From assembly GCA_964424305.1 (NCBI GenBank), contig CAYRHW010000001.1:71947-135946 (forward strand): a stretch of 64,000 nucleotides of DNA. The letters run 5' to 3'. Positions 1,319 through 45,872 of the stretch are shown here, piece by piece; the stretch's first letter is position 1, and every line of letters starts with the position of its first letter. A program made the position numbers and the translations under genes. The stretch is from an uncultured Candidatus Saccharibacteria bacterium (GTDB taxonomy: Bacteria; Patescibacteriota; Minisyncoccia; Minisyncoccales; Staskawiczbacteraceae). The notes under the pieces are model-generated. The model saw only the letters and a list, made by a program, of their open reading frames with translations. It made no database searches and was not told the origin of the DNA.

Positions 1319-1813
1319 GTGCTAATAAAATTCTCTCTAATTGCCCTTATATTTCTAACAGTTCCCCTAATAATTTTTGCTGTGGATGGGGTAGAAATTA
1401 ATACGGCGACGCTACAACAACTAGATGGAATAACAGGGGTGGGGCCGGCGATAGGCCAAAGGATAATAGATGCCAGGCCTTTTTCTTCGATTGACGATCT
1501 ATTAAGAGTGAAGGGTATTGGAGAAAAAACTTTACAAAAGATAAAAGACCAGGGGTTGGCCTATGTTGATGGTCAGATCGCGCAACCCATACTCCAAACA
1601 CCCTCTGAGGCGCCGATAGAAGCACCTTCTGCGACTCTAGCCGAGCCACTTGATATATCTCCAGCAGAAACGCCACTGCAAAATGTGGTCATCCCAATAG
1701 TTTATCCGACGGGCGTGGTGATAAATGAAATATTGCCTAGCCCAGAGGGAGCAGATGAACAAAACGAATGGATTGTCTCCACAATACAACTAATAATTTC
1801 AGCCTATTTGTGA
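1319..1813 (+). CDS. ComEA-like helix-hairpin-helix DNA-binding protein; 5' portion of a gene interrupted by the integrated element (last 13 codons are element-derived)
   Basis: N-terminal TM segment, then the ComEA HhH motif INTATLQQLDGITGVGPAIGQRIIDARPFSSIDDLLRVKGIGEKTLQKI. It ends ...VVINEILPSPEGADEQNEWI (start of a lamin-tail-domain motif), then unrelated residues and a stop. Confidence 0.85.
   Translation: MLIKFSLIALIFLTVPLIIFAVDGVEINTATLQQLDGITGVGPAIGQRIIDARPFSSIDDLLRVKGIGEKTLQKIKDQGLAYVDGQIAQPILQTPSEAPIEAPSATLAEPLDISPAETPLQNVVIPIVYPTGVVINEILPSPEGADEQNEWIVSTIQLIISAYL
1766..1773 (+). repeat. attL core (GAATGGAT)
   Basis: 8-nt identity with 15336-15343. It lies exactly where the ComEA/LTD reading frame diverges into element sequence. 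Confidence 0.6.
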
Positions 1814-1995
1814 CAACTTACCTCCCGGATAGGAATTATAGCAAAGAAAGAAATATGGTAGCCGTAGAATGAAGGAGTTAAAAGCCACCTTTTAATCGGG
1901 GTGGTTTTTTGTTCTAGCTTTTGGTATATTTATATAAAATAATGAGTTATCAACAGTTATAGTAATTTTATAAATTTACTATAAGTACCAAGTTT

Positions 1996-3348
1996 ATGAA
2001 CCCTATAAATTGGCAACAATTTGGCTTGAAGAAAAATCCTTACGACACCCTACCACTTATAGAGGGAGGAGATCTGCCCATAGATAAAGCATTCGTTGGA
2101 AGAGACGGAGAAAGGAAATTCCTTGATGGTCTTTTTTCTTCAAATAATAGAATATGTTTGACTGTCTGTGGGGGTGTTGGAGTAGGAAAAACAAGCTTAG
2201 CAAATTTTCACAAGTTTATATGGAAGTATACAAAAGAAAAATTACTTTTTTCTTTTAGGAGAGAAATTGAGGCCAACTATGACTTACTTAATAAAAAAAG
2301 TTTTTTGATAGAAATAATTGGTTCCATATTAAGAGAAATTAGATTGCTAGAACCAAACTTGTTAAAAAACGAATTATTGAAAAAACTCAATCAAATAGTT
2401 GATATTAGTCAGACCATGAGCATATCTGGTGGAGCTTCTTTCTATGGATTCGGTCTAGACGTGGGAGGAAGCAAATCACCGACAATTCCGATACAGTTAT
2501 CCGCTACGTTGCTTGAAGAACATTTTATATCTCTAGTTAAATTTATTAAAAATAATGAGATTAAATCTTTAGAATATTCTGGTTTGATAGTGCATGTAAA
2601 TAACTTTGACATAATCTTGTCGAATGAAGAAGGCATAAAAAAGGCGATTAATTTTTTTGATGAGATAAGAGATATTTTGCAAACCCCTGATGTCTATTTT
2701 TTATTTTTAGGCCCCGAAAATTTATTTAAGGACGTGATCTGTTCCCGTCAAAGAGTAAAAAGCATCTTTTATCCAACTCCATTAAAAATAAATCCTCTAT
2801 CCAAAAAAGAGATCGTAAAAGCATTTGAAGAAAGGATGGAGTTTTTAAAATCCGATGATGTCTCCTCTTACATAAAGCCCGTAGAGGATGATGTAATTTA
2901 TAAGATCTATGATTTATATAATGGAGATATCCGCTCAATAATGACAAGCACCATAGATATACTAGGACAATATTCAGATAAACTTGCGAAAGCTTTAACT
3001 ACTAATGAGGCCATGTTGCTTTTGGGGAAAGAACGCTGGGATAAGATTGAAAATGTCATGAGGCTAACTCATGAACAAAAAGAAATACTTAAATATTTAG
3101 CAAGTGCAGAAAAGTTTATCAGTCAAAAGGAAATAGCAAAAATGTTTAACAAACAAACATCAAATGTTTCTGGTTATTATTTTAAACCATTAAGAGATAA
3201 TAATATTATTGAAGAAAAGGAACGCATTAAACAAACCCCATATTATGGTTTAACATCTGATTATGTCCCCATAAAATGGTTAATAAAATCTCAAAATGAA
3301 GTTAAAAAAAGCATAGAATGTAAATCAAAACAACTAAGCTTGCTATAA
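1996..3348 (+). CDS. P-loop NTPase (AAA/ORC-Cdc6-like architecture) with C-terminal winged-helix HTH
   Basis: 450 aa; FVGRDGE...LTVCGGVGVGKTSLA Walker A; hydrophobic strand then D (GLIVHVNNFD) as candidate Walker B; C-terminal MarR-like wHTH (HEQKEILKYLASAEKFISQKEIAKMFNKQTSNVSGYYFKPL). Confidence 0.6.
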   Translation: MNPINWQQFGLKKNPYDTLPLIEGGDLPIDKAFVGRDGERKFLDGLFSSNNRICLTVCGGVGVGKTSLANFHKFIWKYTKEKLLFSFRREIEANYDLLNKKSFLIEIIGSILREIRLLEPNLLKNELLKKLNQIVDISQTMSISGGASFYGFGLDVGGSKSPTIPIQLSATLLEEHFISLVKFIKNNEIKSLEYSGLIVHVNNFDIILSNEEGIKKAINFFDEIRDILQTPDVYFLFLGPENLFKDVICSRQRVKSIFYPTPLKINPLSKKEIVKAFEERMEFLKSDDVSSYIKPVEDDVIYKIYDLYNGDIRSIMTSTIDILGQYSDKLAKALTTNEAMLLLGKERWDKIENVMRLTHEQKEILKYLASAEKFISQKEIAKMFNKQTSNVSGYYFKPLRDNNIIEEKERIKQTPYYGLTSDYVPIKWLIKSQNEVKKSIECKSKQLSLL

Positions 3349-3360
3349 AAATTTATTAAT

Positions 3361-3387
3361 AAAACAGTCTATATGTGCTGTTTTTTC
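3361..3387 (+). terminator. Rho-independent terminator candidate
   Basis: AAAACAG-N10-CTGTTTT followed by a T-run, directly after the ATPase stop. Confidence 0.45.
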
Positions 3388-3458
3388 TTGATTTTACTAT
3401 GCTTTAGCACTAAGGTTAAAATAACAACTTAATATTGAGCCTAAACCTATATTTTATA

Positions 3459-3582
3459 GGCATGGCACAAAACTCCAAGTGCATACTGAACCCGTCGTTC
3501 AGGCTCCATGCACTTGGTCTATATCCGAAAGGGTATAGGAGACGCAAGTCTCGGCCTAGCGGCGGGCTTTGTGTTATGCCGC
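3459..3582 (+). promoter_or_regulatory. Highly structured 5' leader (candidate riboswitch or cis-regulatory RNA) upstream of the secreted repeat protein
   Basis: Hand-folded helices: 10-bp CCAAGTGCAT/ATGCACTTGG (3475-3484/3508-3517) enclosing 6-bp CTGAAC/GTTCAG. 9-bp stem capped by a GAAA tetraloop (3518-3539). 5-bp GAGAC/GTCTC capped by a GCAA tetraloop (3539-3552). GCGGC/GCCGC (3559-3563/3578-3582). Ends 10 nt before the ATG at 3592. Confidence 0.5.
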
Positions 3583-3591
3583 TATAAAACT

Positions 3592-5424
3592 ATGAAAAAA
3601 TTTATCATCGCAGTCATTTTATTATTAACGCCTTTCTTTGCGTCTGCTTCCATAGATAAGAATTTATCTTATGGATTAAAAATTGACTCAGATGTTATGG
3701 AGTTGCAGGAGTTCCTAAAAGCCGATGGTTGTTATAATGGCTTTACGGGGGGGAATTTTCTGATGCTCACCCTTAAGGGTGTAAAATGTTTTCAAACAAA
3801 ATATCACGATGAAATTTCAGCTTTGGCCGGTTATTCTATAAAATCCTCTGGTTTCGTCGGCTCTGGAACAAGGACTTTTATTAATCAAAAACTTAATGAA
3901 GAACTCGCCGATTCCAATATAGATGCTAACCAAGAAGGAACAGTTGCCTGTTCTCCTTTTTGGAAATGTAGCAATTGGAGTGCTTGTGCGGGATCTCAAC
4001 AGACAAGAAGCTGTATTGATTCAAATAATTGCAAGGTTACAACTGGGAAGCCCAATGAAGCACAGGGGTGTACCACCGCTTGTACTCCGAATTGGCAGTG
4101 TACTTCCTGGGGTTCTTGTATTAACTCTCAATGGGTAAGAACCTGTAACGATTCTAATAGTTGCGGAATTACAACAGGAAAACCGAGCGAAACACAGTCC
4201 TGTACGGTTGCTTGCTCTCCTAATTGGCAATGCTCTTCGTGGAGCACCTGTGCAAATTCACAACAGACGAGAACCTGTAGTGATTCTAATAGTTGTGGGA
4301 CTATGACGGGAGAGCCAACTGAAGCACAGGTGTGTACGGTTGCTTGTAGCCCAAACTGGCAATGCAATGCATGGAGTACGTGTTCCAATTCTCAGCAAAC
4401 AAGAATTTGTAATGACGCCAATGGTTGCGGAGTTTTAACTAATAAACCGTTGATAGCACAATTTTGCACAGTTGCCTGTTCTCCTAATTGGCAATGTGGA
4501 GAATGGGGTATTTGCACAAACTCCCAGAAGGCAAGAACATGTAATGATGTCAACAATTGTGGGCTCGCCAGCGGTAAACCGAATGAAACAGATTCTTGCA
4601 TTGTATATTTTGTAGCAGATATATCCCTTGATAAATATACGCTTGCTAATAATGGTGTAGACTCTATTAAGGTCAACATAAAAACTAAGGATTCAAACGG
4701 TAATATCCTTCCCAACAAAACTGTTCAAATTACGACAGACAGTACCGTCAGCGCCACATCGGACTCTAATGGAGATATAAACACAACAATATCTACCACG
4801 GGATTACCAGGATCACGCAAACTTAAAGTTAGTGCTGATGGTTATTCGTATGATTCTAATAATTATGAGGTGATCGGAACGGGCGCAACCGCCATGGGCT
4901 CGGTTTGTTTCCCACAAACTGGTAACCTAACCAGACTTATGGCTCCCGGGAAAGATCAGGAATTACTTCAGATAGCACAATTGAGAAGTTTAGGAATAAC
5001 AAATTTGGGTTTAAAAAAGGTAAACTTTAAGGTGAGTGGTATAGATTCTACTTGGATAAGCAATATAAGGATTCAAAAATACCCACCACCTTGTAGTGAA
5101 TATTTTTGTTATCAGGGGAATATAACTGCGCCGAGTAATGCTGTGGGCACCATATCTAGTGATGGGATAATTAGTGTGGTCTTAGTAAATCCGTTGCCAA
5201 TTCGTAATGACGATCGTGTATATGTATATGCAGATTTGGCGAATCCAACCTCGCCAAGAACCGGTACGACATATACTAATGAATTTATTTCAGCGGAATT
5301 TACGGGGATGGTTGCAGGTTATACGTCAAATAGTATATCTTTTGGGGCATTTAATTGTATGAGCACAACTGATGGGTTGGGCGATCACGAAACATTTTTA
5401 AGTCAAATATTTAGGGGTAACTAA
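3592..5424 (+). CDS. Secreted protein: peptidoglycan-binding-like domain, 5 tandem Cys-rich repeats, bacterial Ig-like domain, C-terminal domain of unknown function
   Basis: Start moved to MKKFIIAVILLLTPFFASA (signal peptide); the track start at 3508 lies inside the RNA structure. PG_binding-like SDVMELQEFLKADGCYNG; repeats ACSPNWQC..W..C.NSQQTR.C.D.N.CG; Big_1-like SIKVNIKTKDSNGNILPNKTVQITTDS. Confidence 0.8.
   Translation: MKKFIIAVILLLTPFFASASIDKNLSYGLKIDSDVMELQEFLKADGCYNGFTGGNFLMLTLKGVKCFQTKYHDEISALAGYSIKSSGFVGSGTRTFINQKLNEELADSNIDANQEGTVACSPFWKCSNWSACAGSQQTRSCIDSNNCKVTTGKPNEAQGCTTACTPNWQCTSWGSCINSQWVRTCNDSNSCGITTGKPSETQSCTVACSPNWQCSSWSTCANSQQTRTCSDSNSCGTMTGEPTEAQVCTVACSPNWQCNAWSTCSNSQQTRICNDANGCGVLTNKPLIAQFCTVACSPNWQCGEWGICTNSQKARTCNDVNNCGLASGKPNETDSCIVYFVADISLDKYTLANNGVDSIKVNIKTKDSNGNILPNKTVQITTDSTVSATSDSNGDINTTISTTGLPGSRKLKVSADGYSYDSNNYEVIGTGATAMGSVCFPQTGNLTRLMAPGKDQELLQIAQLRSLGITNLGLKKVNFKVSGIDSTWISNIRIQKYPPPCSEYFCYQGNITAPSNAVGTISSDGIISVVLVNPLPIRNDDRVYVYADLANPTSPRTGTTYTNEFISAEFTGMVAGYTSNSISFGAFNCMSTTDGLGDHETFLSQIFRGN
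3946..4605 (+). repeat. Five tandem 132-bp (44-codon) coding repeats, 6 Cys each
   Basis: Repeat units ACSPFWKCSNWSACAGSQQTRSCIDSNNCKVTTGKPNEAQGCTT, ACTPNWQCTSWGSC..., ACSPNWQCSSWSTC..., ACSPNWQCNAWSTC... and ACSPNWQCGEWGIC... read directly from the translation. Confidence 0.85.
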
Positions 5425-5427
5425 ATA

Positions 5428-5745
5428 ATGAGTATATTTATAAAAGACAATTGGTTTAAAATTATAGCTACAATATTATTATTGTGGGCACTAGCAGATA
5501 ATCCTTACGGATATTATCAATTTCTAAGATGGGTTGTGGTAATAATCGCTGGCTATACTGCTTATGTCGCCTATAACAATCAGAAAATCGGTTGGGCATG
5601 GGTTTTTGGTATTGTAGCTATTCTGTTTAATCCTATTTTCCCTTTTTACCTCTCGAAGGGTAATTGGCAATTTATAGATGTGGTAGTAGCCGTGTTATTT
5701 TTAGTATCGTTATCTAAAACACAAAAACTTGAAAAAAGTAATTAA
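5428..5745 (+). CDS. Small integral membrane protein (3-4 TM)
   Basis: 105 aa and strongly hydrophobic (IIATILLLWALA, VVVIIAGYTAYVAY, WAWVFGIVAILFNPIF); 3 nt after the upstream stop. Confidence 0.65.
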   Translation: MSIFIKDNWFKIIATILLLWALADNPYGYYQFLRWVVVIIAGYTAYVAYNNQKIGWAWVFGIVAILFNPIFPFYLSKGNWQFIDVVVAVLFLVSLSKTQKLEKSN

Positions 5746-6106
5746 AATATTTTCCTTATTGTCGCTTCTATTAGTTCTTGGTGTATTGCCCATAGTCGTT
5801 GATGCTAGAAGCGGTTGTTGCTCTCATCATGGCGGAGTTTGTGGCTGTGGTTGTTGTGACGGGACTTCTCTTTCAGCGACTTGTGCCCCATACTATCCCG
5901 AGTGTAGTCGGAATGTTTATACTCCGACAACGAACACTAATTATAATCCCCCGGCCGATAACACTTATATCCCACCAGTAGTTAATAATAGTCAGGATAG
6001 TAATGCTGGAGAGAATAATGATAGTTCTGGTTGGTGGACATTAGGAATACTTGGCTTAGTTGGATATGGAATATATCGTTACGTAAAAAACAAAAATAAT
6101 AAATAA
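5729..6106 (+). CDS. Cys-rich secreted protein with C-terminal membrane anchor
   Basis: TTG start, signal peptide, SGCCSHHGGVCGCGCCDG cluster, Pro/Asn/Thr-rich linker, C-terminal TM WWTLGILGLVGYGIY. Confidence 0.6.
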   Translation: MKKVIKIFSLLSLLLVLGVLPIVVDARSGCCSHHGGVCGCGCCDGTSLSATCAPYYPECSRNVYTPTTNTNYNPPADNTYIPPVVNNSQDSNAGENNDSSGWWTLGILGLVGYGIYRYVKNKNNK

Positions 6107-6110
6107 ACTT

Positions 6111-6347
6111 ATGAAAAAAATATTACTATCAGTATTTATATTATCAATGCTATTTTTTGGTGGTTTTAATGCCGTTGATGCTAAAATTCTAAAGATAAAT
6201 GGCTATTATAAACCGAGTATCGGAAAGTACGTTCAACCATACTATAAGACCAGCCCGAATAAAACTAAAATTGATAACTATTCAACGAAAGGAAATTACA
6301 ATCCCTTTAATGGAAAGATCGGAACGATAAACCCCTATAAGTTCTAA
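6111..6347 (+). CDS. Small secreted protein
   Basis: 78 aa, signal peptide MKKILLSVFILSMLFFGGFNAVDA, Lys/Tyr/Asn-rich mature part. Confidence 0.55.
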   Translation: MKKILLSVFILSMLFFGGFNAVDAKILKINGYYKPSIGKYVQPYYKTSPNKTKIDNYSTKGNYNPFNGKIGTINPYKF

Positions 6348-6357
6348 TACTAAATCT

Positions 6358-6528
6358 ATGAGTCTCTCAAAAGAATCCATAGATGAATTTAAGCGAATCT
6401 GGAAGAAACACTTTGGTACTGATATTTCAGATGAGAAAGCTCGGGAAGATGGAGGGAGGCTTCTTCGGCTAGTAGAAATAATTTATAAACCCATGACCCA
6501 GAAAGAGTACGATATATATAGTAAGTAA
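6358..6528 (+). CDS. 56-aa hypothetical protein (paralog of 12726-12896); absent from ORF track
   Basis: ATG 6358 to TAA 6526-6528: MSLSKESIDEFKRIWKKHFGTDISDEKAREDGGRLLRLVEIIYKPMTQKEYDIYSK. About 60% identical to a second copy on the other strand; conservation at protein level supports coding. The antisense track ORF 6389-6715 is probably spurious. Confidence 0.55.
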   Translation: MSLSKESIDEFKRIWKKHFGTDISDEKAREDGGRLLRLVEIIYKPMTQKEYDIYSK

Positions 6529-6539
6529 TAAGCAAATTT

Positions 6540-7529
6540 ATGAAACAAATATCTAAGATTGTAATAACTTTATTAATTGTTTCTTTTATCGTCCCGCAAG
6601 TAGCATTGGCGTCTTGGTGGAATCCCCTTAGTTGGAATATCTGGGGTGGTATTTTCCATAAAACTGATTCTAAAACACAAATATTAGAGAATCGTGTGAA
6701 AGAGCTTGAAAACAAGTTAAATAGTCAACCCACCTCTACAACTACAAAAACTGATAATACTAAACAGTCAGTCATCACTAAACAAACAGAACCTAAGTCA
6801 GAAAACAATATTAATAAGCCAACAACAGAAACTACTAAAACAACCAACAATACACAAGCTACAACGATGAAGCTTTCGGTCTATAATTCATATATAGATT
6901 CTGCAATAAAAGCATATCAAGAAAATATCACTAACTATAATCAGATGGCGAGCTATATACAAGGCACAAAAGATGGATTGGATCGGGAAGAATCTTTGCT
7001 CTTAGAACTCAAGGCATCGGAAACCGATTCTTGGTGGAAGGGTGCTTGGCAATTAGTAATTGATAAGGCGGTTGTCCCGCCAAGAGAACGGTGTAATCAA
7101 TTTTTGGATAATTTTAATAAAAATATTCAGGCAATAAATTCAAATATTGCTATTCTTAGAAATGAAAAGGATAAAAATAATGTTTCTGCTCCAGTCAGCA
7201 TTGAACAATATATAGCGTATTTTGACAAATTGAATAGTTTGATTATCATTGATAAGTTTTCACAAGATGTAGATAGCACTTCTTTATTACTTGAACCATT
7301 TAATCAAAAGACTTTTGTCGACCTTAAGGGTGCTGTTAAAATATTTGCTGACAAACAAACGGAGCTTTACTATAAATCTATTGGCACTGCCTATGTTCCA
7401 AGTCAAAACACATACAACCAAATAAATAATTATTATGTTCCGCCAGTATTCCCCACGATTCAAGTACCACAAACAACGCACTGCACAATGATGCGTACGA
7501 TCAACGGAGCAACTATGGATTGCTATTAG
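6540..7529 (+). CDS. Secreted protein with Thr/Asn-rich linker and helical domain
   Basis: 329 aa, signal/TM IVITLLIVSFIVPQVALA, low-complexity TTTKTDNTKQ...TTETTKTTNNTQ region. Confidence 0.65.
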   Translation: MKQISKIVITLLIVSFIVPQVALASWWNPLSWNIWGGIFHKTDSKTQILENRVKELENKLNSQPTSTTTKTDNTKQSVITKQTEPKSENNINKPTTETTKTTNNTQATTMKLSVYNSYIDSAIKAYQENITNYNQMASYIQGTKDGLDREESLLLELKASETDSWWKGAWQLVIDKAVVPPRERCNQFLDNFNKNIQAINSNIAILRNEKDKNNVSAPVSIEQYIAYFDKLNSLIIIDKFSQDVDSTSLLLEPFNQKTFVDLKGAVKIFADKQTELYYKSIGTAYVPSQNTYNQINNYYVPPVFPTIQVPQTTHCTMMRTINGATMDCY

Positions 7530-7539
7530 TTTACTAAAT

Positions 7540-7562
7540 AAGCCCTTTTTGGAGGGCTTTTT
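7540..7562 (+). terminator. Rho-independent terminator
   Basis: AAGCCCT-TTTTGG-AGGGCTT followed by a T-run, 11 nt after the stop at 7529. Confidence 0.65.
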
Positions 7563-7564
7563 GG

Positions 7565-7594
7565 TTGGAAAAAACATCAAAATCGTGATATAAT
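7565..7594 (+). promoter_or_regulatory. Extended -10 promoter candidate
   Basis: TTGGAA (7565-7570), 18-nt spacer, TG-n-TATAAT (7586-7594), 33 nt upstream of the ATG at 7627. Confidence 0.4.
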
Positions 7595-7626
7595 TTAAGC
7601 GAAATTAATGAAAATTTAAGATAAAA

Positions 7627-8835
7627 ATGAGAGAGAAGTTTAAAAAACCAAAAAATAATCTAGGAGCTGACAGCTTATTTTTTAATAATCCCCTGGCATA
7701 CATAGACGAAAAAGGAAGATTTATTTATAAGGCGAGCGGTTTTTTTCGTCTCGAAAAGATATATGGAGCTTCTTATGGTATAGCCGGTGAGGTTTCTAGA
7801 CCATTAGATTTTGATACTGTATATAAGTGGCCGAACTTGAAGCGGGATGGGTACGAACTGATAAGCGAGCCGAACGAAATAACTATTTGTGGGGGTGGCA
7901 AGGTTACAAGGATTGATAATGCCTTATCTTTTAAAGATATTGAAATAAAATTTAATAATCGGAAGGATTTAGTCAATTTGTGTTCTTATATTGATGACAA
8001 GAAATCTTCACTGGAAATCTTTATCAATGTTGCCAGCGTTCTATCTGAACAAGGAGAAATCGATTTTGCAAACGAACAGAACAATTACTTAAAAATTAAG
8101 TCTGAAAAAATAAGCTCGCTTTTAAGCTTCGGGTCTACTTTTATAATAAAAAATAAATCAATGGAAGTAAAAGGCGGGGATAGATATATTTTTGAAAGCG
8201 ATGAACTAATTGATCAGCTAACCATTTCAACGCTTCTATATTTTGCCAAGAAAGAGCACATACCATCTCACAATATATTAATAGCTCTTCTTTTGGACGG
8301 ATTAAAAAAATTTCTAAGAAGTTATACAGAAAACATTGATGAGTATGAAAAAGATATATTAACAAATGAGGCGTTAGAGTTAATAAGCCTTGTTATCCTA
8401 AATAAGAATAAGAGATTTGTGTTTAATCCAAATAATAGACAATCCTTACAGCATTATTTTTTTGGAACTGGTCATCCTGTTACGACCAATAAAGGTGGCT
8501 GGATACCTAAAATTCAGGAGTATTTGAAAGATAAAAATTTAGAGAAGCATAGGTTAAAGGAGGAAGCTACTGTGGTTGAGAGCAGAATTGAGGATAAAGA
8601 TTACGATAAAATATACAGTGATTGGGGTGCTTTTTTAAGAATGGACCAATCGGCCCAGACGGCATTAATAAAAGATAAAACTAAGGATTGGCCAGCAAAA
8701 GATCGGGATATATTGTATATGCATTATTTAGAGGGAAGTACCCTTGAAGATATTGGTAAAAAATATGGTGTAAAAAAAGCCCGAATTTCTCAGATTTTAA
8801 ACAAACTAGTAAAAAAACTAGGCACTATGCATTAA
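7627..8835 (+). CDS. Protein with C-terminal sigma-70 region-4-type HTH (element-encoded regulator or sigma-like factor)
   Basis: 402 aa; C-terminus DRDILYMHYLEGSTLEDIGKKYGVKKARISQILNKLVKKL matches the region 4.2 pattern. The N-terminal ~330 aa is unrecognised. Confidence 0.65.
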   Translation: MREKFKKPKNNLGADSLFFNNPLAYIDEKGRFIYKASGFFRLEKIYGASYGIAGEVSRPLDFDTVYKWPNLKRDGYELISEPNEITICGGGKVTRIDNALSFKDIEIKFNNRKDLVNLCSYIDDKKSSLEIFINVASVLSEQGEIDFANEQNNYLKIKSEKISSLLSFGSTFIIKNKSMEVKGGDRYIFESDELIDQLTISTLLYFAKKEHIPSHNILIALLLDGLKKFLRSYTENIDEYEKDILTNEALELISLVILNKNKRFVFNPNNRQSLQHYFFGTGHPVTTNKGGWIPKIQEYLKDKNLEKHRLKEEATVVESRIEDKDYDKIYSDWGAFLRMDQSAQTALIKDKTKDWPAKDRDILYMHYLEGSTLEDIGKKYGVKKARISQILNKLVKKLGTMH

Positions 8836-8871
8836 ACTTTTTCACATAACCCTCCATTTATTATACTAATA

Positions 8872-8896
8872 GCCCCATTTATTGGGGTTTTGTTTT
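8872..8896 (+). terminator. Rho-independent terminator
   Basis: GCCCCA-TTTAT-TGGGGT followed by TTTTGTTTTG. Confidence 0.6.
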
Positions 8897-9049
8897 GAAA
8901 AAAAATGGAGAATTATTCTACTTATACTGCGAGGCAGGGAGCGCATACTCCAAAAAACAACGCAATATTTGAAGTGGTGGTTCTAGCCTCAAGCTCACCA
9001 TACGAAGAGCGAAAAAAGAAAATGCAGAAATGGATTAATTATTTTTGCT

Positions 9050-9325
9050 TTGAATCAGGAGAAAGTATTAACGATGAGAAAAAATAAACCTATGCAACAA
9101 TACACCGGCCAGTTTCCAAAGTACGAATTTAGCGAAACCCAAAGACTTAATCCTTGCTGGAGCTCCCTAATTTGTTTTCACGAAGTAATCAAAAACAGAA
9201 AGGCGCTGCATCCACGCTTAATCAGAAAATGGTTTTATAAATTAGTTGATAAAGATGACTATGTAGTAAAAGACAAGGATGAAGTTTTAAGCTATGCCCT
9301 AAAGTTAGCGAGAGGCGAAGCATAG
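9050..9325 (+). CDS. Hypothetical protein (true start possibly at 9074, MRKNKPMQQ)
   Basis: 91-aa ORF with no recognisable motif; coding status supported only by length and context. Confidence 0.4.
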   Translation: MNQEKVLTMRKNKPMQQYTGQFPKYEFSETQRLNPCWSSLICFHEVIKNRKALHPRLIRKWFYKLVDKDDYVVKDKDEVLSYALKLARGEA

Positions 9326-9432
9326 GGGGGGGTGAATTCCCCTAATAAAAAAGACAAAATATGCCACCAGCAGGCAGAGAAACAGAATGGCGGTAAAAGG
9401 TACATCTAAACACCCTTTCCAGCCCAAAATCT

Positions 9433-9729
9433 ATGAAATTACAAAATTTAACAATAAGTGAAATTAATGTAATACCAGTTAAACCAAACGAGGGGCTAAT
9501 TGGATTTGCCTCTTTTGTTTTAGACGAAAGGTATTATGTTGGCTCGGTTGCAATCTATACAAGATTAGATGATTTTGGTTATAGGTTAGTTTATCCAACC
9601 AAAAAGGTAGGAGATAAAAATATAAATATCTTTCACCCCATTACCCAAGAAGTTGGCGGGGTTATTGAGGAAGAAGTAATAAAAAAATTAAGTGAAATAT
9701 TTGATGAAGATTATGGACACAGAAAATAA
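9433..9729 (+). CDS. spoVG: SpoVG-family nucleic-acid-binding protein
   Basis: 98 aa; pattern I.V.PVK..EGLIGFASFVLDE.YYVGSVAIYTR.D...YRLVYPTKK....INIFHPIT matches SpoVG (MK..V.I......LKA.ASV.LD..F.V.......G..GLFV.MP). Confidence 0.8.
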   Translation: MKLQNLTISEINVIPVKPNEGLIGFASFVLDERYYVGSVAIYTRLDDFGYRLVYPTKKVGDKNINIFHPITQEVGGVIEEEVIKKLSEIFDEDYGHRK

Positions 9730-10771
9730 CAAAAAATTAAGTGAGGGACTAGAAGAGTTTGTAAAAGAGATTGCATATAATAATTTAGTTCCTACTGGTT
9801 GGGAGGTTATAAAAGGTGAACATCTTTTGAAAATGGAAATATCAAAACGAGAATTTCTGATAGATGGTCTTCTTCCATCTCAGGGGATCATCATTTTATC
9901 CGGTAACCCCGGCTGTGGTAAAAGTTGGCTGGCAATTGAGATCGCAAGGGTTATCTCTTCGGCCAGCTCTTCATTGTTCAATAAATTTGAAGCCAAAGAC
10001 GGCTCTGTACTTTATATTGATGAAGAATCAAATATTCAAGAAATGCAAAGGAGGTGGAAGGCGTTGGGAGCAGATATTCTTTCGTTTACTGATTTTACGT
10101 TCCTTCGTGGGTTTAAAATTGATAATAGAGAGGAAAGAGAAAAATTACTAGATTTTGTTAGCCACAAAAAATACTGTTTAGTTATTTTTGATAGTTTAAG
10201 AGATATCCATAGTAAGAATGAGAATGACTCCCAACAGGCGCAGGAGTTGATAGATTATTTTCGTGAACTAATAAAAATGGGCTCTACTGTATTAATTTTG
10301 CATCACAACAGAAAAGAGAGTTTTCTTAATTCTAAAGATCCTTCTCAATTATTGCGTGGCTCAACAGCTATTTTAGCGGGCCTAGATTGTTTAATTTCGG
10401 TTGAAAGCAAAAAAATAAATGACCGGGTTATTGAGTTCACTATAAGTCAACCAAAATTAAGACAGGGGAAACCAGTATCCCCATTCAAATTAAATCTAGT
10501 TGAAGAGGAGGGTAAGATAAAATTTGAGTATGTGGGAGAGATAGAAGAAGAGGCTACAAAACTTCAGAAGGCCAAAGAGGCTATACTAGAACTTCTTAAA
10601 GACGGAGAGAAATATCACGGTGAAATCGTCCAAACCCTAATCTCGCTTTACTTTGCAGAGAGAACAACCAATAGAGCCATAAAAGAACTAAAGGAAGGCA
10701 AAAATATCCAACCAAGAAAGGATGGCAAGAAGATTTATTACACTATTGGTGCCATGGTGCCAAGTGATTAG
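9692..10771 (+). CDS. RecA-fold AAA_25/RepA-like replicative ATPase with C-terminal wHTH (start may be 9713, MDTENN)
   Basis: Walker A LSGNPGCGKSWLAIEIA, Walker B VLYIDEE, VIFDSLRD, LILHHNRK. This is typical of plasmid/phage RepA/DnaB-like helicase loaders. C-terminal winged-helix-like region. Confidence 0.75.
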   Translation: MKYLMKIMDTENNKKLSEGLEEFVKEIAYNNLVPTGWEVIKGEHLLKMEISKREFLIDGLLPSQGIIILSGNPGCGKSWLAIEIARVISSASSSLFNKFEAKDGSVLYIDEESNIQEMQRRWKALGADILSFTDFTFLRGFKIDNREEREKLLDFVSHKKYCLVIFDSLRDIHSKNENDSQQAQELIDYFRELIKMGSTVLILHHNRKESFLNSKDPSQLLRGSTAILAGLDCLISVESKKINDRVIEFTISQPKLRQGKPVSPFKLNLVEEEGKIKFEYVGEIEEEATKLQKAKEAILELLKDGEKYHGEIVQTLISLYFAERTTNRAIKELKEGKNIQPRKDGKKIYYTIGAMVPSD

Positions 10772-10928
10772 TGCCAATGGCACACGTTCACCCTTAAAAC
10801 CTTCTAAAGAAAGGTGGGGATTAGTGCCAAACACCCCCTTTAGGGGGTTGGCAGTAATACCTTTCTTAGAGGGTTAAATAAATTAATTATAAAGGGCGCC
10901 CGTCCTTTAAACCAAAGGTTGGTGCCAA
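10749..10928 (+). repeat. Five GTGCCA(A/T) iteron-like repeats plus hairpins (candidate element origin or regulatory region)
   Basis: GTGCCAT 10749, GTGCCAA 10757, 10771, 10824 and 10922. GTGCCAATGGCAC is a near-palindrome (10771-10783). CCCCC-TTTA-GGGGG hairpin at 10834-10847. Confidence 0.45.
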
Positions 10929-10935
10929 ACAATAA

Positions 10936-11568
10936 ATGGAAAAAGAAATACAAAAAGAAGAGAACAAGTTATTAATTAAAAAATATACGCCAGAGAAGGC
11001 CAAAGAGTTTGTTGTGGATTGTTTTGTGCTCCCCGGAATAGATGCGAACCATAATTTAAGAATTATTGCCAATGAAATAATGCCAAAGTTTTTCAGCGAT
11101 AATAAGGAAGAACAGGAAGAGGGGCAAAAGAGAATAAATGAAATTTCCTTAAATGTTCTAAGGGCTTTTGAGACTGAAACTTATATAGGATTGATGGAGG
11201 CAGTTAGCGAACAATACAGATCTTTAGCCAAAGAACTAACCATTCAAATTATTAAAGATTACGCTTGCAAAACAAGCATAGAAAAACTTATTGCTGAGGA
11301 TGTTGTTCATTCATATATTAAGGTGCTTGATAGTTCACGAAGATTAAATAGTCAGCTTAATAGCGGAAATACAACCTCACTTTTAAATACATATATGGGC
11401 ATACTGAGTAAACAGGCAGACAGAGCCCATAGGCAATTCCTTAATGCCCTAATGACACTTAAGCAAATAAAGACTCCCTTAATTGAAATGAATATAAAAA
11501 CAAATAATGCTTTTGTTGCTCAAAACCAACAAATTAATGCAGACAAGAAAATCAATGAAGCTAAATGA
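10936..11568 (+). CDS. Hypothetical protein (helical)
   Basis: 210-aa ORF with no diagnostic motif; co-directional and adjacent to the replication module. Confidence 0.55.
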   Translation: MEKEIQKEENKLLIKKYTPEKAKEFVVDCFVLPGIDANHNLRIIANEIMPKFFSDNKEEQEEGQKRINEISLNVLRAFETETYIGLMEAVSEQYRSLAKELTIQIIKDYACKTSIEKLIAEDVVHSYIKVLDSSRRLNSQLNSGNTTSLLNTYMGILSKQADRAHRQFLNALMTLKQIKTPLIEMNIKTNNAFVAQNQQINADKKINEAK

Positions 11569-11890
11569 TTTAGGAAATAAATTATTAGTTGAGAACTGCC
11601 AAAAGATCTCTATTAATACCTTTTCCAGACAAGCAAATAAAAAACTAAAAGAGATGTTTTTATCTTCCCAATTTGAGATAACAAGCAGGAATATTGAGCT
11701 CACTACCTCTAGTGTTCATTTTGGTGGTATCAGGTATTGGTTTAAATGCCCCTTGTGCGAGAAAAAGATGGGAACCCTATTTATTCACCCCCTTAACCAA
11801 CAGGTCGGCTGTAGGGGCTGTTTAGGGCTTGAGTATAGAAAAAGAAGATATAAAGGAATGGTTGAGGGAGAGGTTATCAACACCACTTAG
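11555..11890 (+). CDS. Zinc-ribbon protein
   Basis: Start set at MKLNDLGNK (overlaps the upstream stop by 14 nt). CPLC...GCRGC four-Cys motif. Confidence 0.5.
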   Translation: MKLNDLGNKLLVENCQKISINTFSRQANKKLKEMFLSSQFEITSRNIELTTSSVHFGGIRYWFKCPLCEKKMGTLFIHPLNQQVGCRGCLGLEYRKRRYKGMVEGEVINTT

Positions 11891-12072
11891 CACATAACCA
11901 AAAAGCCCTCCGTTTTGGAGAGGACTTAGTGGGAGCTGTTAAATTGTACTTTTTATCATTTCAAATACTCCAGGATAAATCCAACTTACTACTTTAACGG
12001 AAACAAACGGAAATAAAAACAGCAGGAAAATTGTTAAAATTATTGTGTAAATTATTTTCTTGAAAGACACTT

Positions 12073-12411
12073 TTAAAACTTAAAAATAAAACCCAGTATG
12101 GCTATCACGATAAGGACAAGGATTAGATATAGCAATGGACCAAGCCAAAAGGTAAGAAAACCTACTCCTATACCCAAACCCACCTTTCCTGCTTTCTCCG
12201 CCAGACTGTCTTTCTTGTTTCTCTGTCCATTATACTGGTTGTGCTTAACATAATATCTAGTAGCCACCACCTTAAAAACATGCCTCGCCTCTTCTTCGTT
12301 CAGTCCACCTTCAATTAATTTATTTACCCATTCGGATTTGTTAGTCGGATTAAATGAATAGTCTGCAAACAACTTTTCGGTAGCAACCTTAATGTTTTCT
12401 TTTTCTTCCAT
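12073..12411 (-). CDS. Membrane-anchored hypothetical protein
   Basis: 112 aa with a C-terminal double TM (VGLGIGVGFLTFWLGPLLYLILVLIVIAILGFIF). Confidence 0.55.
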   Translation of the reverse strand: MEEKENIKVATEKLFADYSFNPTNKSEWVNKLIEGGLNEEEARHVFKVVATRYYVKHNQYNGQRNKKDSLAEKAGKVGLGIGVGFLTFWLGPLLYLILVLIVIAILGFIFKF

Positions 12412-12415
12412 AAAT

Positions 12416-12715
12416 TTATTTTTTAATCTTGGATTTGAATGGACTCATAAGGACATTACCTATCATTTGCGGTAGCGGAATAAATGCAGAGGCATAATAA
12501 ATAATAACTCCCAAAAAAGCCACTTTCCAATTTATAAATAAAATAGCTATCCACGTTCCTATGCCAATCCAATAAAAAAGTAATGTCCACTTAGGAAGAT
12601 TTGGCTCATTTGTTGGAATATCCCCAAACTTTTTAGCTTTTGCTAAATCTAAATCAAAAAGAATTATTGATAATGATAGAAAGAATAAGATGACTAACAG
12701 AATTAATATATCCAT
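12416..12715 (-). CDS. Small integral membrane protein
   Basis: 99 aa, three hydrophobic segments. Confidence 0.55.
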   Translation of the reverse strand: MDILILLVILFFLSLSIILFDLDLAKAKKFGDIPTNEPNLPKWTLLFYWIGIGTWIAILFINWKVAFLGVIIYYASAFIPLPQMIGNVLMSPFKSKIKK

Positions 12716-12725
12716 AGATTATAAA

Positions 12726-12896
12726 TTATTTACTAAACTTGTCGTATTCTTTCTGGGTCATTGGTTTATAGATTGCCTCTACCAGCTGAATAAGCTTGCT
12801 ACCACTTTCTTGAGCCTTCTCGTCTGAAATGTCTTCTCCGAATTTCCTCTTCCAGATTCGTTTAAATTCATCTAGCCGTTCTTTAGAGATTATCAT
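12726..12896 (-). CDS. 56-aa hypothetical protein (paralog of 6358-6528); absent from ORF track
   Basis: Reverse strand from ATG (12896) to TAA (12726-12728): MIISKERLDEFKRIWKRKFGEDISDEKAQESGSKLIQLVEAIYKPMTQKEYDKFSK. Confidence 0.55.
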   Translation of the reverse strand: MIISKERLDEFKRIWKRKFGEDISDEKAQESGSKLIQLVEAIYKPMTQKEYDKFSK

Positions 12897-12899
12897 AGG

Positions 12900-13061
12900 T
12901 TATTTTTTATTTTCTATTTCTTCACAAAAAAAGAACCCGAGCCAAAAATATGCAAAAATTATAAAGCATGTCCCAAAGGTGAAATAACCGTTTCCAACAC
13001 CGATTAGAGAAAATGGAGCGAGACTAATAGGAAGATATAAAATTAGATTTATAGCTTTCAT
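12900..13061 (-). CDS. 53-aa small membrane protein (tentative)
   Basis: Reverse-strand ORF MKAINLILYLPISLAPFSLIGVGNGYFTFGTCFIIFAYFWLGFFFCEEIENKK. It fills the gap between flanking co-directional genes. Confidence 0.35.
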   Translation of the reverse strand: MKAINLILYLPISLAPFSLIGVGNGYFTFGTCFIIFAYFWLGFFFCEEIENKK

Positions 13062-13065
13062 GGAT

Positions 13066-13296
13066 TTATTTGGTTTTGTGCTTCATTATCATGATGCCGA
13101 TAGCAATTAACATTGCTCCAACTGAAATAGCCATAAGAACATCTTCTGAATAATAATAGTAATTAGCGCTACCACCGAATGTATGATAAAAATTAAAGGC
13201 ATTATAAGAAAAAACCCCAATTCCTATTATTGTTAGTAACTCTCCTAAATACTTCTTGATAAATACTGTTATTTTATTCGTTGTTATTTTATCCAT
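13066..13296 (-). CDS. Small membrane protein (2 TM)
   Basis: 76 aa; LLTIIGIGVFSYNAF and AISVGAMLIAIGIMIM. Confidence 0.5.
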   Translation of the reverse strand: MDKITTNKITVFIKKYLGELLTIIGIGVFSYNAFNFYHTFGGSANYYYYSEDVLMAISVGAMLIAIGIMIMKHKTK

Positions 13297-13300
13297 ATAT

Positions 13301-13474
13301 TTATTTCTTATGTTTCTTAATAAAACTATTCAGATCTTTTCCATCAATACGAAAATGCTGGTCAGTCAACTTAAGAACCTTGAGCCTTTTGGACTCAATA
13401 TAACGATAGATAGTCTTCTTACTTACACGGAGGTAGTCAGCAACCTCTTGTATGGTTAGAAATTTGTTAGACAT
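13301..13474 (-). CDS. Excisionase-family (MerR-like) HTH DNA-binding protein
   Basis: Start set at MSNKFLTIQEVADYLRVSKKTIYRYIESKRLKVLKLTDQHFRIDGKDLNSFI, the canonical Xis-type HTH pattern. Divergent from the integrase. Confidence 0.75.
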   Translation of the reverse strand: MSNKFLTIQEVADYLRVSKKTIYRYIESKRLKVLKLTDQHFRIDGKDLNSFIKKHKK

Positions 13475-13558
13475 TAATTCAATATAATACCAATGGAAAC
13501 AACAATCAATACCTGTCCACACTTGACACGCCATCTCAACACGAGGTACAATTAAACC

Positions 13559-13664
13559 GTTGAAGATAATAACCAGATTCTATAGTTATTTATTTTATAA
13601 AACTATATAATAACTACGGGGACGGAACTGGTTATCTTCAACAAATAACTATAGATTCCGTCCC
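13559..13664. promoter_or_regulatory. Interleaved inverted repeats in the xis-like/integrase divergent intergenic region
   Basis: A GTTGAAGATAATAACCAG (13559-13576) vs A' CTGGTTATCTTCAAC (13628-13642). B TCTATAGTTATTT (13579-13591) vs B' AAATAACTATAGA (13643-13655). C GGGACGGAA (13619-13627) vs C' TTCCGTCCC (13656-13664). Confidence 0.5.
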
Positions 13665-13681
13665 TTTTAGTTTATAAAAAT

Positions 13682-15355
13682 ATGAAAACAACATTACAAA
13701 ACTATAATATAGGTCAAGGAGTGACCCTCAAAACTAAAAGAGCGGCGATTTATATTAGATGCTCATCAGATGAAGCTGGGAAGGAAGGATACAGCCCTCA
13801 AACACAACGAGATAAAACAATGGATTTTATCAGAGCAAACAATTACCAAATAAATGAAAGATTTATTTATACAGATATTGGCTGCTCAGGGAGCACGGAC
13901 AAAAGACCAGACTTCCAAAGATTTTTAAAAGACGCTAAAAACAAAGAATTTGATGTGGCTGTCGTTTATAGAATGGATAGGTTTTTTAGAAACCTGAGGC
14001 TGCTTTTAAACACCGTGGCCGAGCTCAGAGACATCGGAATAGAGTTTAAGTCAGTAACAGAGCCCTTTGATACTTCAACTCCCACAGGAAGGGCAATGTT
14101 TGCGAATGCGGGTGTCTTTGCAGAGTGGATGAGAGAGGTTGGGTTAGAATCAAGGAATGAGGGGATGGTGAAAGCAATGAAAGAAGGTAAATATTTAGGC
14201 GGAACCCCTCCCTATGGATGTAAAATTAACAAAGAAACACAAAAATTAGAGATTGAAAAAAACGAAATTAAGGTAGTAAAGATGATATTTGGATGGCTTG
14301 TGGACGAAGGGCTGAGCGAGTATAAAATACAGCAAAGGTTAAATACAATGAAAGTTCCTACTAAGTTTGATTTAGTGGGAAGGAAAAAGAAAACTGGGAG
14401 TACGTGCTGGTGGAATAGAAAAACCGTAGACAGGGTATTGAGCAATGAAGTATACACAGGAACATTCTACTACAGAAAATATTTACATCCTGGCAGGACA
14501 AGAAATGAAAATAATTTTAGACCCAAGGAGGATTGGATAAAGGTTGAAGATAAGTCTCTAATGGTTATATCTAGGGAAAGATTTGAAAGAGGACAAAAAC
14601 AATTAAAAAAGAACAAAGAACAGGCGGCTAGAAACACAAAAGAATTATACGCCCTACAACATAAAATAGTCTGTGGTGTGGATGGTTACAGATACCAGTG
14701 CGGGATTAGGCGCTACCAATCAACAAAAACTGGCAATAAAAGATCAACTAAATATTACTTTTGTGTGGGTACAAGATCATATATGGCCGCCAGAAGGTGC
14801 CACGTCCCGACAATAAGTGAATCCAGGATAATACCACCCGTGTGGAATAAATTAAAAGAAATTTTTCTCAACCCAGAAATAGTTCTAAAAGAAATTGAGA
14901 CCTGTAAAAACCAAAATGCCGGGAGTAGTGTGTCTGATCGGCTAGAGATTGTTAAAAAAGAGCTTGCCTCCCAAGAAGAAAAGAAAGAAAGATATGCTGA
15001 ATTATATGCAGAGAAATCTATCAATAAAAATTTCTATGATAAAAAAATAAAAGAATGCACCGATAAAGCTGAAAAAATGCAAGAAGAGGGAATAAGGCTG
15101 GGAAGACTTGCAACATCTGAAGACGAGAAAAAAACTCAATTAATGTCTATAATAGAACTTTATGGGCGATTGAAAAATGGACTTGAAAATGCTACCTATG
15201 AGCTAAAGAGAGAAATTCTCCAGGACCTAGTAGAAAGGGTTGTAAAAACCGATAATAAGCTTGAAATAGAATTCCTTATACCGTTATTAGGAGAAAGGGA
15301 CCAGGAGAATCAGTCGGGTTGTAGTGACAACCCAAGAATGGATAGAAATATATAA
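13682..15355 (+). CDS. Large serine recombinase (integrase)
   Basis: 557 aa. N-terminal resolvase domain AAIYIRCSSDEAGKEGYSPQTQRD with catalytic Ser and VVYRMDRFFRN; recombinase domain; Cys-rich zinc ribbon (C..DGYRYQC...YYFC); C-terminal coiled coil. The stop lies 12 nt beyond the attR core. Confidence 0.95.
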   Translation: MKTTLQNYNIGQGVTLKTKRAAIYIRCSSDEAGKEGYSPQTQRDKTMDFIRANNYQINERFIYTDIGCSGSTDKRPDFQRFLKDAKNKEFDVAVVYRMDRFFRNLRLLLNTVAELRDIGIEFKSVTEPFDTSTPTGRAMFANAGVFAEWMREVGLESRNEGMVKAMKEGKYLGGTPPYGCKINKETQKLEIEKNEIKVVKMIFGWLVDEGLSEYKIQQRLNTMKVPTKFDLVGRKKKTGSTCWWNRKTVDRVLSNEVYTGTFYYRKYLHPGRTRNENNFRPKEDWIKVEDKSLMVISRERFERGQKQLKKNKEQAARNTKELYALQHKIVCGVDGYRYQCGIRRYQSTKTGNKRSTKYYFCVGTRSYMAARRCHVPTISESRIIPPVWNKLKEIFLNPEIVLKEIETCKNQNAGSSVSDRLEIVKKELASQEEKKERYAELYAEKSINKNFYDKKIKECTDKAEKMQEEGIRLGRLATSEDEKKTQLMSIIELYGRLKNGLENATYELKREILQDLVERVVKTDNKLEIEFLIPLLGERDQENQSGCSDNPRMDRNI

Positions 15356-15860
15356 TCAAAACCCGACTGCAGTAGATTTATCTGGATGGAAAATATCTGA
15401 CACCGAAGGAAGTAGCAATGTCTACACCTTCCCAATTGGTTCAAAAATACAAAGCAATGGTTATTTAGTCCTGGGAAGACCCGCGACAAAGATTGTTTTG
15501 AATAACGCCAAAGACGGCCTAATAATTAAAAACCCAGCGGGGGTAATATCAGATGAAGTTAGCTACACGAAAGCCCCAACAAATCAATCATATAATAGGC
15601 TAAATTCTGTTTGGGCTTGGAGTAAGACCTTGACTCCTGCCTCAAAAAATATTATCTCTACAGAAAGCGGGGGAAGCACCGATATCGCCTCCCAAGAAAC
15701 CGAAACCATTGGTGAAGAGGCCCTATTGGCATCCCTAGAAAAAGGAATCCCAGAAAAGAAAAACTTCGCCCCTACCCTCTTATTCGGAATTATTGTTTCT
15801 CTATTTTTAGTAATATCTTTTTACTTTTTAAAAACAAAATTAACCAATAAAAATCTATGA
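15324..15860 (+). CDS. Lamin-tail-domain (LTD) protein with C-terminal TM anchor; 3' portion of the interrupted comEA-LTD gene
   Basis: ...QEWIEIYNQNPTAVDLSGWKISDTEGSSNVYTFP...GYLVLGR is the LTD signature. The GTG start in the track is probably fortuitous. C-terminal TM LLFGIIVSLFLVISFYFL. Confidence 0.8.
   Translation: MTTQEWIEIYNQNPTAVDLSGWKISDTEGSSNVYTFPIGSKIQSNGYLVLGRPATKIVLNNAKDGLIIKNPAGVISDEVSYTKAPTNQSYNRLNSVWAWSKTLTPASKNIISTESGGSTDIASQETETIGEEALLASLEKGIPEKKNFAPTLLFGIIVSLFLVISFYFLKTKLTNKNL
15336..15343 (+). repeat. attR core (GAATGGAT)
   Basis: Identical to 1766-1773; same codon phase (GAA TGG AT.) in the LTD reading frame. Confidence 0.6.
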
Positions 15861-45797: not shown

Positions 45798-45872
45798 TGG
45801 TGCGCCCGGCGGGACTCGAACCTGCAACCTTATCCTTAAGAGGGATCTGCTCTGCCATTGAGCTACGGGCGC
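45798..45872 (-). tRNA. tRNA-Lys (anticodon CTT), CCA encoded
   Basis: Minus strand GCGCCCG-TA-GCTC-AATGGCA-GAGC-A-GATCC-CTCTTAA-GGATA-AGGTT-GCAGG-TTCGAGT-CCCGC-CGGGCGC-ACCA. One A-C mismatch in the T stem and one G-A at the base of the anticodon stem. Confidence 0.85.

Follow-up and report, generated by a model that had tools for sequence, protein, structure and literature searches.

A LOOT RNA before a predicted secreted-protein gene in a Patescibacteria mobile element, a candidate two-state antiterminator/terminator leader

The LOOT motif (Rfam RF03000) originates in a 2017 survey (Weinberg et al., PMC5737381). The Rfam 14 paper (PMC7779021) terms it a ‘metagenomic-based RNA’, and according to Rivas (PMC7657543) it has about 43 base pairs (bp), six helices and an unusual number of ‘cross-covariations’. 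Our literature search, which did not cover the supplement of the 2017 discovery survey, found no paper on LOOT function. Other described RNAs share parts of its anatomy. The cyclic di-GMP-I riboswitch (c-di-GMP-I or GEMM-I, RF01051) combines a GAAA tetraloop with a receptor-type loop in a neighbouring helix, the receptor being of the 11-nucleotide (11-nt) type that also occurs in group I and group II introns and in RNase P. In T-box leaders and in purine and S-adenosylmethionine (SAM) switch leaders, all at the 5' end of an mRNA, exclusive pairings hide the 5' strand of a terminator in an upstream helix, and a run of uridines (U-tract) follows the alternative helix. We here analyse a LOOT RNA in a 64,000-nt stretch of DNA from an uncultured Candidatus Saccharibacteria bacterium (GenBank assembly GCA_964424305.1, contig CAYRHW010000001.1, forward-strand positions 71,947 to 135,946; Genome Taxonomy Database family Staskawiczbacteraceae); this whole stretch is called the window, and all positions refer to it unless another locus is named. 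Comparison with homologs gives the LOOT family a likely transcription start and a conserved 3' strand; it also brings out two competing folds, places the RNA at a fixed position before genes and links it to mobile elements of Patescibacteria. The comparison suggests, with a probability of about one half, that LOOT is a cis-acting, two-state antiterminator/terminator leader able to shut off the downstream gene. For a family listed as a small RNA (sRNA) and without an assigned function since 2017, this turns ‘function unknown’ into a concrete hypothesis.

That the RNA in the window is a LOOT RNA, in a Patescibacteria genome, is near certain. A cmscan of the whole window against Rfam 15 placed LOOT at 3438–3552 on the + strand with 75.9 bits (gathering cutoff 46.4, E = 1.7e-12), aligned over model positions 1–121 of 121, i.e. 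at full length. This was the sole non-tRNA Rfam match of the window, and no further LOOT-like copies were found within its 64 kb. In a local scan of 3340–3640 with all 4227 Rfam families, permissive filters and E≤10, LOOT reached E = 8.1e-15, and the five remaining matches were microRNA or sRNA models with E from 0.8 to 9; c-di-GMP-I, c-di-GMP-II (RF01786) and the other riboswitch models gave no match. The copy departs from its family nowhere, sharing the CCUAAAC/GCAUGG loop of hairpin P1, the A-rich linker, a long P2, the GAAA loop of P3 and the GNRA loop of P4 (Table 1), and both P1 loop strands as well as linker positions 3469–3472 are identical to the consensus. The lower stem of P2 is a perfect 10-bp helix of CCAAGTGCAT (3475–3484) with ATGCACTTGG (3508–3517), above which CTGAAC (3486–3491) and GTTCAG (3497–3502) form a local apical hairpin; the P3 helix has 8–9 bp (3518/3519–3538/3539) and directly abuts P4.

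A preliminary description, made from the sequence alone, had proposed a compact multi-helix functional RNA with GNRA tetraloops, rather than a plain terminator, at 3459–3582. Every helix it named is present in the sequence at the positions given, and the proposal itself is supported. The fold of 3430–3600, at −64.7 kcal/mol, lies far below that of shuffles (−40.7 ± 3.8 kcal/mol, z = −6.3, 0 of 200 shuffles as good). The G+C enrichment it pointed out is also real (46–49% in the structured region against 22–30% in the flanks). Its 5' boundary is wrong, since 3459 cuts off hairpin P1; the full element is longer and extends from about 3424/3438 to 3575. Nor does its closing helix of GGCAT (3459–3463) and ATGCC (3576–3580) hold up: both strings are in the sequence, but GGCAT is the 3' strand of the conserved P1 internal loop, with which the pairing would compete, and homologs do not conserve the stretch that contains ATGCC. 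Another closing helix, that of the minimum-energy fold (3448–3470/3565–3593), was rejected as window-specific because it destroys the conserved P1 and has a 3' partner that is not conserved.

The same description saw a resemblance to GEMM-I. Such a riboswitch, or a close variant of it, would have a GAAA tetraloop and a receptor-type loop, as LOOT does, and GEMM-I also precedes varied surface and phage or mobile-element genes; in the window, a predicted secreted, Ig-like protein is encoded behind the RNA. The tetraloop and its receptor are shared with many unrelated RNAs and are not diagnostic, and the GEMM-I-like look comes from this common pair of a GAAA tetraloop and a receptor of the 11-nt type. 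The scan for which the description had called returned LOOT over the same bases and neither c-di-GMP model, the GGCAAA element is absent, as had already been noticed, and four tandem hairpins with a tail are an architecture different from the three-helix junction of GEMM-I, which is closed by its P1. We therefore regard a GEMM-I identity as extremely improbable.

Homologs were gathered with a fixed P1-loop pattern in contigs of one genome per species, which gave at least 120 places. The matches are overwhelmingly in Patescibacteria, with 49 of the 80 listed in named lineages of the Candidate Phyla Radiation (CPR), and all 18 sampled loci pass the Rfam LOOT cutoff. Three further genuine, full copies come from IMG/VR contigs classed as viral (L124, L127 and L136), of which L127 additionally carries a serine recombinase homolog and a tRNA. 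The comparison set consists of 116 distinct copies, each from model position 1 to 173 nt downstream, in a MAFFT alignment that was not fitted to any structure. Because a single structure projected onto the MAFFT columns left the pairs of the variable stems poorly consistent, alignment-free partner-swap tests were used as well, in which the pairing energy of cognate strands is set against that of swapped ones.

The most conserved long-range pairing of the family, missing from the preliminary description, joins the apical region of P2 (segment c) to the tail behind P4 (segment d). In the window the tail reads GGCCUAGCGGCGGGCUUUGUGUU (family form CUGGCGGCGAGC-UUUGUGUU), and 3488–3505 pairs with 3553–3569 in 16 pairs, with one mismatch and one bulge, at −21.8 kcal/mol. 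The helix runs from G3488·U3569 and A3489–U3568 through nine pairs (C3491–G3566 to U3499–A3558) and, past the bulged C3500, five more (A3501–U3557 to U3505·G3553). Across the 116 copies, 14 aligned pairs have 86% of their cells paired and each shows double changes; one occurs as CG 35, GC 35, AU 17, UG 11 and UA 7 times, another as CG 48, UA 38 and UG 12 times. Sliding the partner by 1–3 columns lowers the paired fraction to 44–52%, none of 500 shuffles reaches the observed values, and the partner-swap test gives −23.5 kcal/mol for cognate and −13.5 kcal/mol for swapped strands. Two c/d positions are U·G in 87 and 95 of the 116 copies, so the pairing works only as + strand RNA. The helix abuts UUUGUGUU, and at least five U follow within 8 nt of d in 111/116 copies. 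Tail and U-tract together look like the 3' half of an intrinsic terminator. Other terminators of the window share this style of ending (for example GGGCTT-TTTGGTT at 7540–7559, 8871–8889 and 11927–11903).

The bases of segment c have a second partner. The P2 lower stem is strongly partner-specific (cognate −18.0 against swapped −5.1 kcal/mol; the cognate is the best of 31 in 101/116 copies), and the apical hairpin, which uses the same bases as the c/d helix, is also favoured by its cognate strands (−6.6 against −4.0 kcal/mol), with a lower column consistency of 54–69% paired. The c/d helix moreover crosses P2. The linkers between P2 and c have medians of 3 and 2 nt around a helix of roughly 14 bp, which makes a full pseudoknot, with the whole P2 stem and c/d formed together, sterically implausible; a partial pseudoknot with the top of P2 open is conceivable. 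Constrained folding of the family gave practically equal mean energies for the two states, −55.4 kcal/mol with P2 closed and the tail free (fold A) and −55.6 kcal/mol with the tail helix formed (fold B); the values for the window are −46.9 and −53.5 kcal/mol. The pairing thus appears bistable, with two mutually exclusive arrangements that each have comparative support. Two exclusive pairings that evolution has kept, with a U-tract behind one of them, have the anatomy of an antiterminator/terminator switch.

The ends of the element and its neighbours bear on whether such a switch would act in cis. The motif ACAAYUnAAU, which in the window reads ACAACTTAAT, is found 5–23 nt upstream of P1 in 91/116 homologs. 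Anchored on ACAAY, these 91 sequences show TTG at −35 to −33, G at −14 and TAnAAT at −12 to −7, so that a sigma70-type promoter would start the RNA at the A of ACAAY. Two overlapping candidates exist in the window: TTTACT (3393–3398) and TAAAAT (3417–3422) with a spacer of 18 match the consensus at 9/12 positions, and TTGATT (3388–3393) and TAAGGT (3411–3416) with a spacer of 17 agree with the family spacing and would place the start near A3424. It is possible that the 5' ACAA pairs with UUGU of the tail, or the AAAA of the linker with the U-tract; the bases concerned are invariant, so covariation cannot probe these pairings. Directly past the stop codon (3348) of a 450-amino-acid (450-aa) ATPase gene, AAAACAG and, 10 nt further on, CUGUUUUUU (3361–3386) have the look of an A/U-rich terminator, which would separate that gene from the LOOT promoter.

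On the 3' side, a same-strand open reading frame (ORF) follows LOOT in 113/117 loci, whereas the upstream genes are oriented at random (55 on the + strand, 59 on the − strand) and no conserved upstream gene emerged, the ATPase of the window having no homolog in the other LOOT loci. From the U-tract to the start codon the median distance is 36 nt (quartiles 25–46), so short that it leaves no space for a separate promoter; a promoter between tail and ATG was considered and dropped on that ground and because there is no conserved signal. This genomic arrangement argues for a role in cis. The proteins encoded behind LOOT differ widely. An N-terminal membrane or signal segment is present in about half of them; DNA methyltransferases and zinc-ribbon proteins number about nine each, and nucleases, proteases and Ig-like surface proteins also occur.

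The same comparison settles how the gene in the window should be annotated. Because the ATG at 3508 shares the reading frame of the ORF, 3508–3591 could in principle be coding as an N-terminal extension, the structure being incidental. The preliminary description doubted that start, and rightly: in 116 loci this RNA sequence stands before proteins unrelated to one another, its conservation tracks base pairing, G·U pairs included, and the protein from ATG 3592 begins like a typical signal peptide. Coding of this segment therefore has next to no probability.

Several points weigh against a two-state leader. A terminator ‘loop’ of about 50 nt that is itself structured, comprising the P2 3' strand, P3 and P4, is unusual, and the sequence of the tail shows a strong conservation that most riboswitch expression platforms lack; the tail could belong to one fixed fold, the partial pseudoknot with the P2 top open. 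The energy difference between the folds varies widely among copies (standard deviation 8.8 kcal/mol), so tuning is not tight. The covariation counts stem from related sequences, with phylogeny ignored, in a MAFFT alignment of homologs that were all found through the fixed P1 pattern. The downstream genes are too varied to hint at a ligand or signal, and the Rfam type of LOOT is ‘Gene; sRNA’.

That type suits a stand-alone, trans-acting sRNA of about 150 nt, reaching from about 3424 to the U-tract end at 3575, with c/d as its terminator or final fold and the following gene a mere neighbour or expressed by leakage. Its own promoter, a terminator-like 3' end and the high conservation of sequence and shape, tail included, would fit such an RNA. 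In fold B, moreover, the P2 3' strand is single-stranded and could be a seed; it matches the adjacent mRNA start in 15 members and could equally act in trans. This account does not explain why the same-strand gene stands so close behind LOOT with no promoter space of its own. Nearly every copy has a P2 sequence of its own, for 85% of copies a match nearby could not be detected, and two exclusive, partner-specific pairings are hard to fit to one static fold. We consider a stand-alone sRNA rather unlikely.

LOOT might also be a constitutive structured module of the 5' untranslated region that does not switch, for instance an mRNA-stabilising cap, a processing signal, a protein-binding site or an antitermination element, travelling with accessory genes on mobile elements. 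Its place at the extreme 5' end of the transcript, its compact fold with tetraloop and receptor, and its linkage to varied accessory genes (methyltransferases, surface and zinc-ribbon proteins) and to mobile-element genes are what one would expect of such a module. It would leave unexplained, however, a conserved terminator-like helix with a U-tract between promoter and gene, the dual partners of the apical bases, and the copy of P2 at the start site described below, and it appears improbable to us.

In the two-state model, of which termination, read-through, docking and the ON/OFF assignment are the parts that we infer, an RNA from its own promoter would start near A3424 and fold P1, P2, P3 and P4 in order. 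The GAAA loop of P3 probably docks on the receptor-like loop of P1. By its sequence that loop is a variant of the 11-nt-type GAAA tetraloop receptor, with A·C in the place of G·U; the canonical form is CCUAAG/UAUGG, and bioRxiv 10.1101/2024.03.11.584472 discusses natural variants at the G–U position. GAAA caps P3 in about 110/116 homologs (about 95%), and the P4 loop is a variable GNRA; the P1 loop bases are invariant in all 116, but that loop was part of the search pattern. In fold A, with the gene ON, P2 would be closed with its apical bases in the small hairpin, the 3' tail would be free or held in the optional hairpin P5, and polymerase would read through into the gene. In fold B, with the gene OFF, the apical bases of P2 would pair with the tail, giving a G+C-rich helix that abuts the U-tract and acts as an intrinsic terminator. 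The folds share bases, so only one could form at a time, and P5 would keep the tail away from c after read-through. In the family, the complement of the 5' half of the tail follows in many homologs, a modest signal (cognate −10.4 against swapped −8.1 kcal/mol). A small molecule, a protein, Mg2+ or the speed of transcription might serve as the trigger. Of the riboswitch candidacy put forward in the preliminary description, the cis-regulatory part is thus plausible, given the spacing and strand of the downstream genes and the terminator-like alternative fold; no ligand is indicated.

A subclass of the family may add a second layer. In 15/116 copies (about 13%, compared with 1% in swapped controls) the linker and the P2 5' strand are repeated over 9–18 nt directly before the start codon. 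Such a start-site copy occurs in 8/10 methyltransferase leaders (L005, L006, L020, L022, L030, L074, L089 and L100) and 7/106 others (Fisher p = 4e-7). In these members the P2 3' strand, freed in fold B, could also mask the translation start. The window lies outside this subclass, as only AAAACU is shared before its start codon. It is tempting, if distinctly more speculative than the two-state leader itself, to see in LOOT a new class of cis RNA switch specific to Patescibacteria and their mobile elements. Such a switch would store one strand of a terminator, the 5' one, in the P2 apex of a fold stapled by tetraloop and receptor. A cellular signal would decide between read-through and termination of accessory genes, among them genes for surface proteins and DNA methyltransferases, and methyltransferase leaders would add translational masking.

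Table 1 Features of the LOOT locus, in window positions
Feature	Position	Strand	Basis and details
Integrated mobile element carrying LOOT, 13.6 kb	1766–15343	.	8-bp direct repeat GAATGGAT at 1766–1773 and 15336–15343
Candidate sigma70-type promoter of the LOOT transcript, two overlapping options	3388–3422	+	Consensus scan, family spacing
Conserved 5' motif ACAACTTAAT (family ACAAYUnAAU), likely first RNA bases, upstream of the Rfam model	3424–3433	+	Homolog comparison
P1 hairpin	3438–3467	+	cmscan alignment; internal loop CCUAAAC 3440–3446 opposite GCAUGG 3460–3465
Linker CAAAACU between P1 and P2, A-rich	3468–3474	+	AAAA invariant or nearly so in homologs
P2 hairpin	3475–3517	+	Lower stem and apical region 3485–3507
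Segment c, apical P2, 5' strand of the long-range helix	3488–3505	+	Duplex energy, family covariation
P3 hairpin, GAAA tetraloop 3527–3530	3519–3538	+	cmscan alignment
P4 hairpin, GAGAC 3539–3543/GTCTC 3548–3552, GCAA tetraloop 3544–3547	3539–3552	+	cmscan alignment
3' tail outside the Rfam model: segment d 3553–3569, then overlapping U-rich tract UUUGUGUU 3568–3575	3553–3575	+	Covariation
Optional P5 hairpin, GCGGC 3559–3563/GCCGC 3578–3582, U-tract in loop	3559–3582	+	Sequence
Downstream gene, predicted 610-aa secreted protein	3592–5424	+	ORF list; ATG 3592, 16 nt after U-tract
Large serine recombinase, element end	13682–15355		Pfam and PHROGs domains (integrase, 6e-100)

The gene behind LOOT in the window encodes a 610-aa protein with the signal-peptide-like N-terminus MKKFIIAVILLLTPFFASA and a sub-threshold match to the Ig-like Big_1 domain (30.6 bits, cutoff 34.9). 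The protein has about five tandem Cys-rich repeats of about 44 aa each (C.P.WQC..W..C.NSQ..R.C.D.N.CG), followed by the Big_1 region, and a related Cys-repeat protein is encoded 1.5 kb downstream of the LOOT copy in L043. No Shine-Dalgarno (SD) motif precedes 3592. Such motifs are absent for 40 of the 44 long ORFs (≥150 aa) of the window; with only 4/44 having one and with A/T-rich leaders, initiation seems to proceed largely without SD pairing. A small DUF6804 membrane protein adjoins LOOT loci in three unrelated genomes (window 5428–5745, L032 7099–7275, L092 7665–7829).

LOOT and its gene are cargo of the integrated element, together with an HTH_17 protein, a primase/helicase-like AAA_25 protein and a sigma70-region-4 protein. 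The insertion splits a comEA-LTD gene into a 5' part (1319–1813) and a 3' part (15324–15860; blastn). Relatives with 83–96% identical RuvB carry the gene set RuvB, one comEA-LTD gene, YebC, RuvC, PBP and DnaN, with the gene at the site intact and no insertion; in the relative L141 the intact comEA-LTD protein reads ...NEWIEIYN... across the insertion site. At least nine other LOOT copies have a serine recombinase homolog inside their 8-kb locus, and LOOT seems often to travel with mobile DNA.

The RuvB of the window is 79–83% identical to proteins named Patescibacteria or Ca. Staskawiczbacteria. Some LOOT copies bear non-Patescibacterial names, namely L004 and L055 (Bathyarchaeota) and several ‘uncultured Gammaproteobacteria’ records; L004 hardly differs from the Microgenomates copies L015 and L054, a sign of mis-binned or mislabelled metagenome-assembled genomes more than of a wider distribution. 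‘P1-only’ elements also exist (L109 at 889 and 1787, L002 at 4777, and L134 on the minus strand), in which the promoter-proximal motif, the receptor-loop hairpin and the AAAA linker are followed by a gene without P2–P4. The two L109 elements share one sequence and stand before the same ORF, which points to a repeated or mobile gene that inserted into LOOT copies. Elsewhere in the window, a perfect consensus promoter (TTGACA-17-TATAAT with upstream TG, 12/12) at 284–312 on the minus strand overlaps the ruvB start codon and points away from ruvB, and there are four tRNA genes, at 45801–45872 (−), 46309–46380 (−), 47930–48001 (+) and 55257–55327 (+), the third of which overlaps a mechanically listed ORF starting at 47952.

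For the window, the outcome is that a ‘riboswitch candidate’ becomes a catalogued orphan RNA and that the ORF start should move from 3508 to 3592. If the two-state leader is right and its signal is a small molecule, LOOT would be a new riboswitch class in a phylum with almost no understood regulation.

Among known systems, LOOT is the family to which the locus belongs, and what the comparison extends is its description in Rfam. The Rfam model has six nested helices and ends at P4; it contains neither the 5' ACAAYUnAAU start, nor the 3' tail that pairs with the P2 apex, nor the U-tract, nor the link to a downstream gene. The P1 loop has the CCUAA and AUGG of the 11-nt receptor unchanged and differs from it in one pair, A·C (CCUAAA/CAUGG) where the canonical receptor has G·U. 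With GEMM-I, LOOT shares a tetraloop and a receptor-type loop in neighbouring helices, where docking in LOOT is probable, but the helix topology differs and LOOT has no identifiable ligand pocket, so it is not a member of that class. From T-box, purine and SAM leaders LOOT differs in that the apical loop of a helix supplies the 5' strand of its putative terminator, in that this terminator would enclose two whole hairpins and cross P2, and in that the tail is as conserved as the ‘aptamer’. What it would have in common with these leaders, if it does switch, is a pair of mutually exclusive pairings at the 5' end of an mRNA, one hiding the terminator 5' strand in an upstream helix and the other followed by a U-tract.

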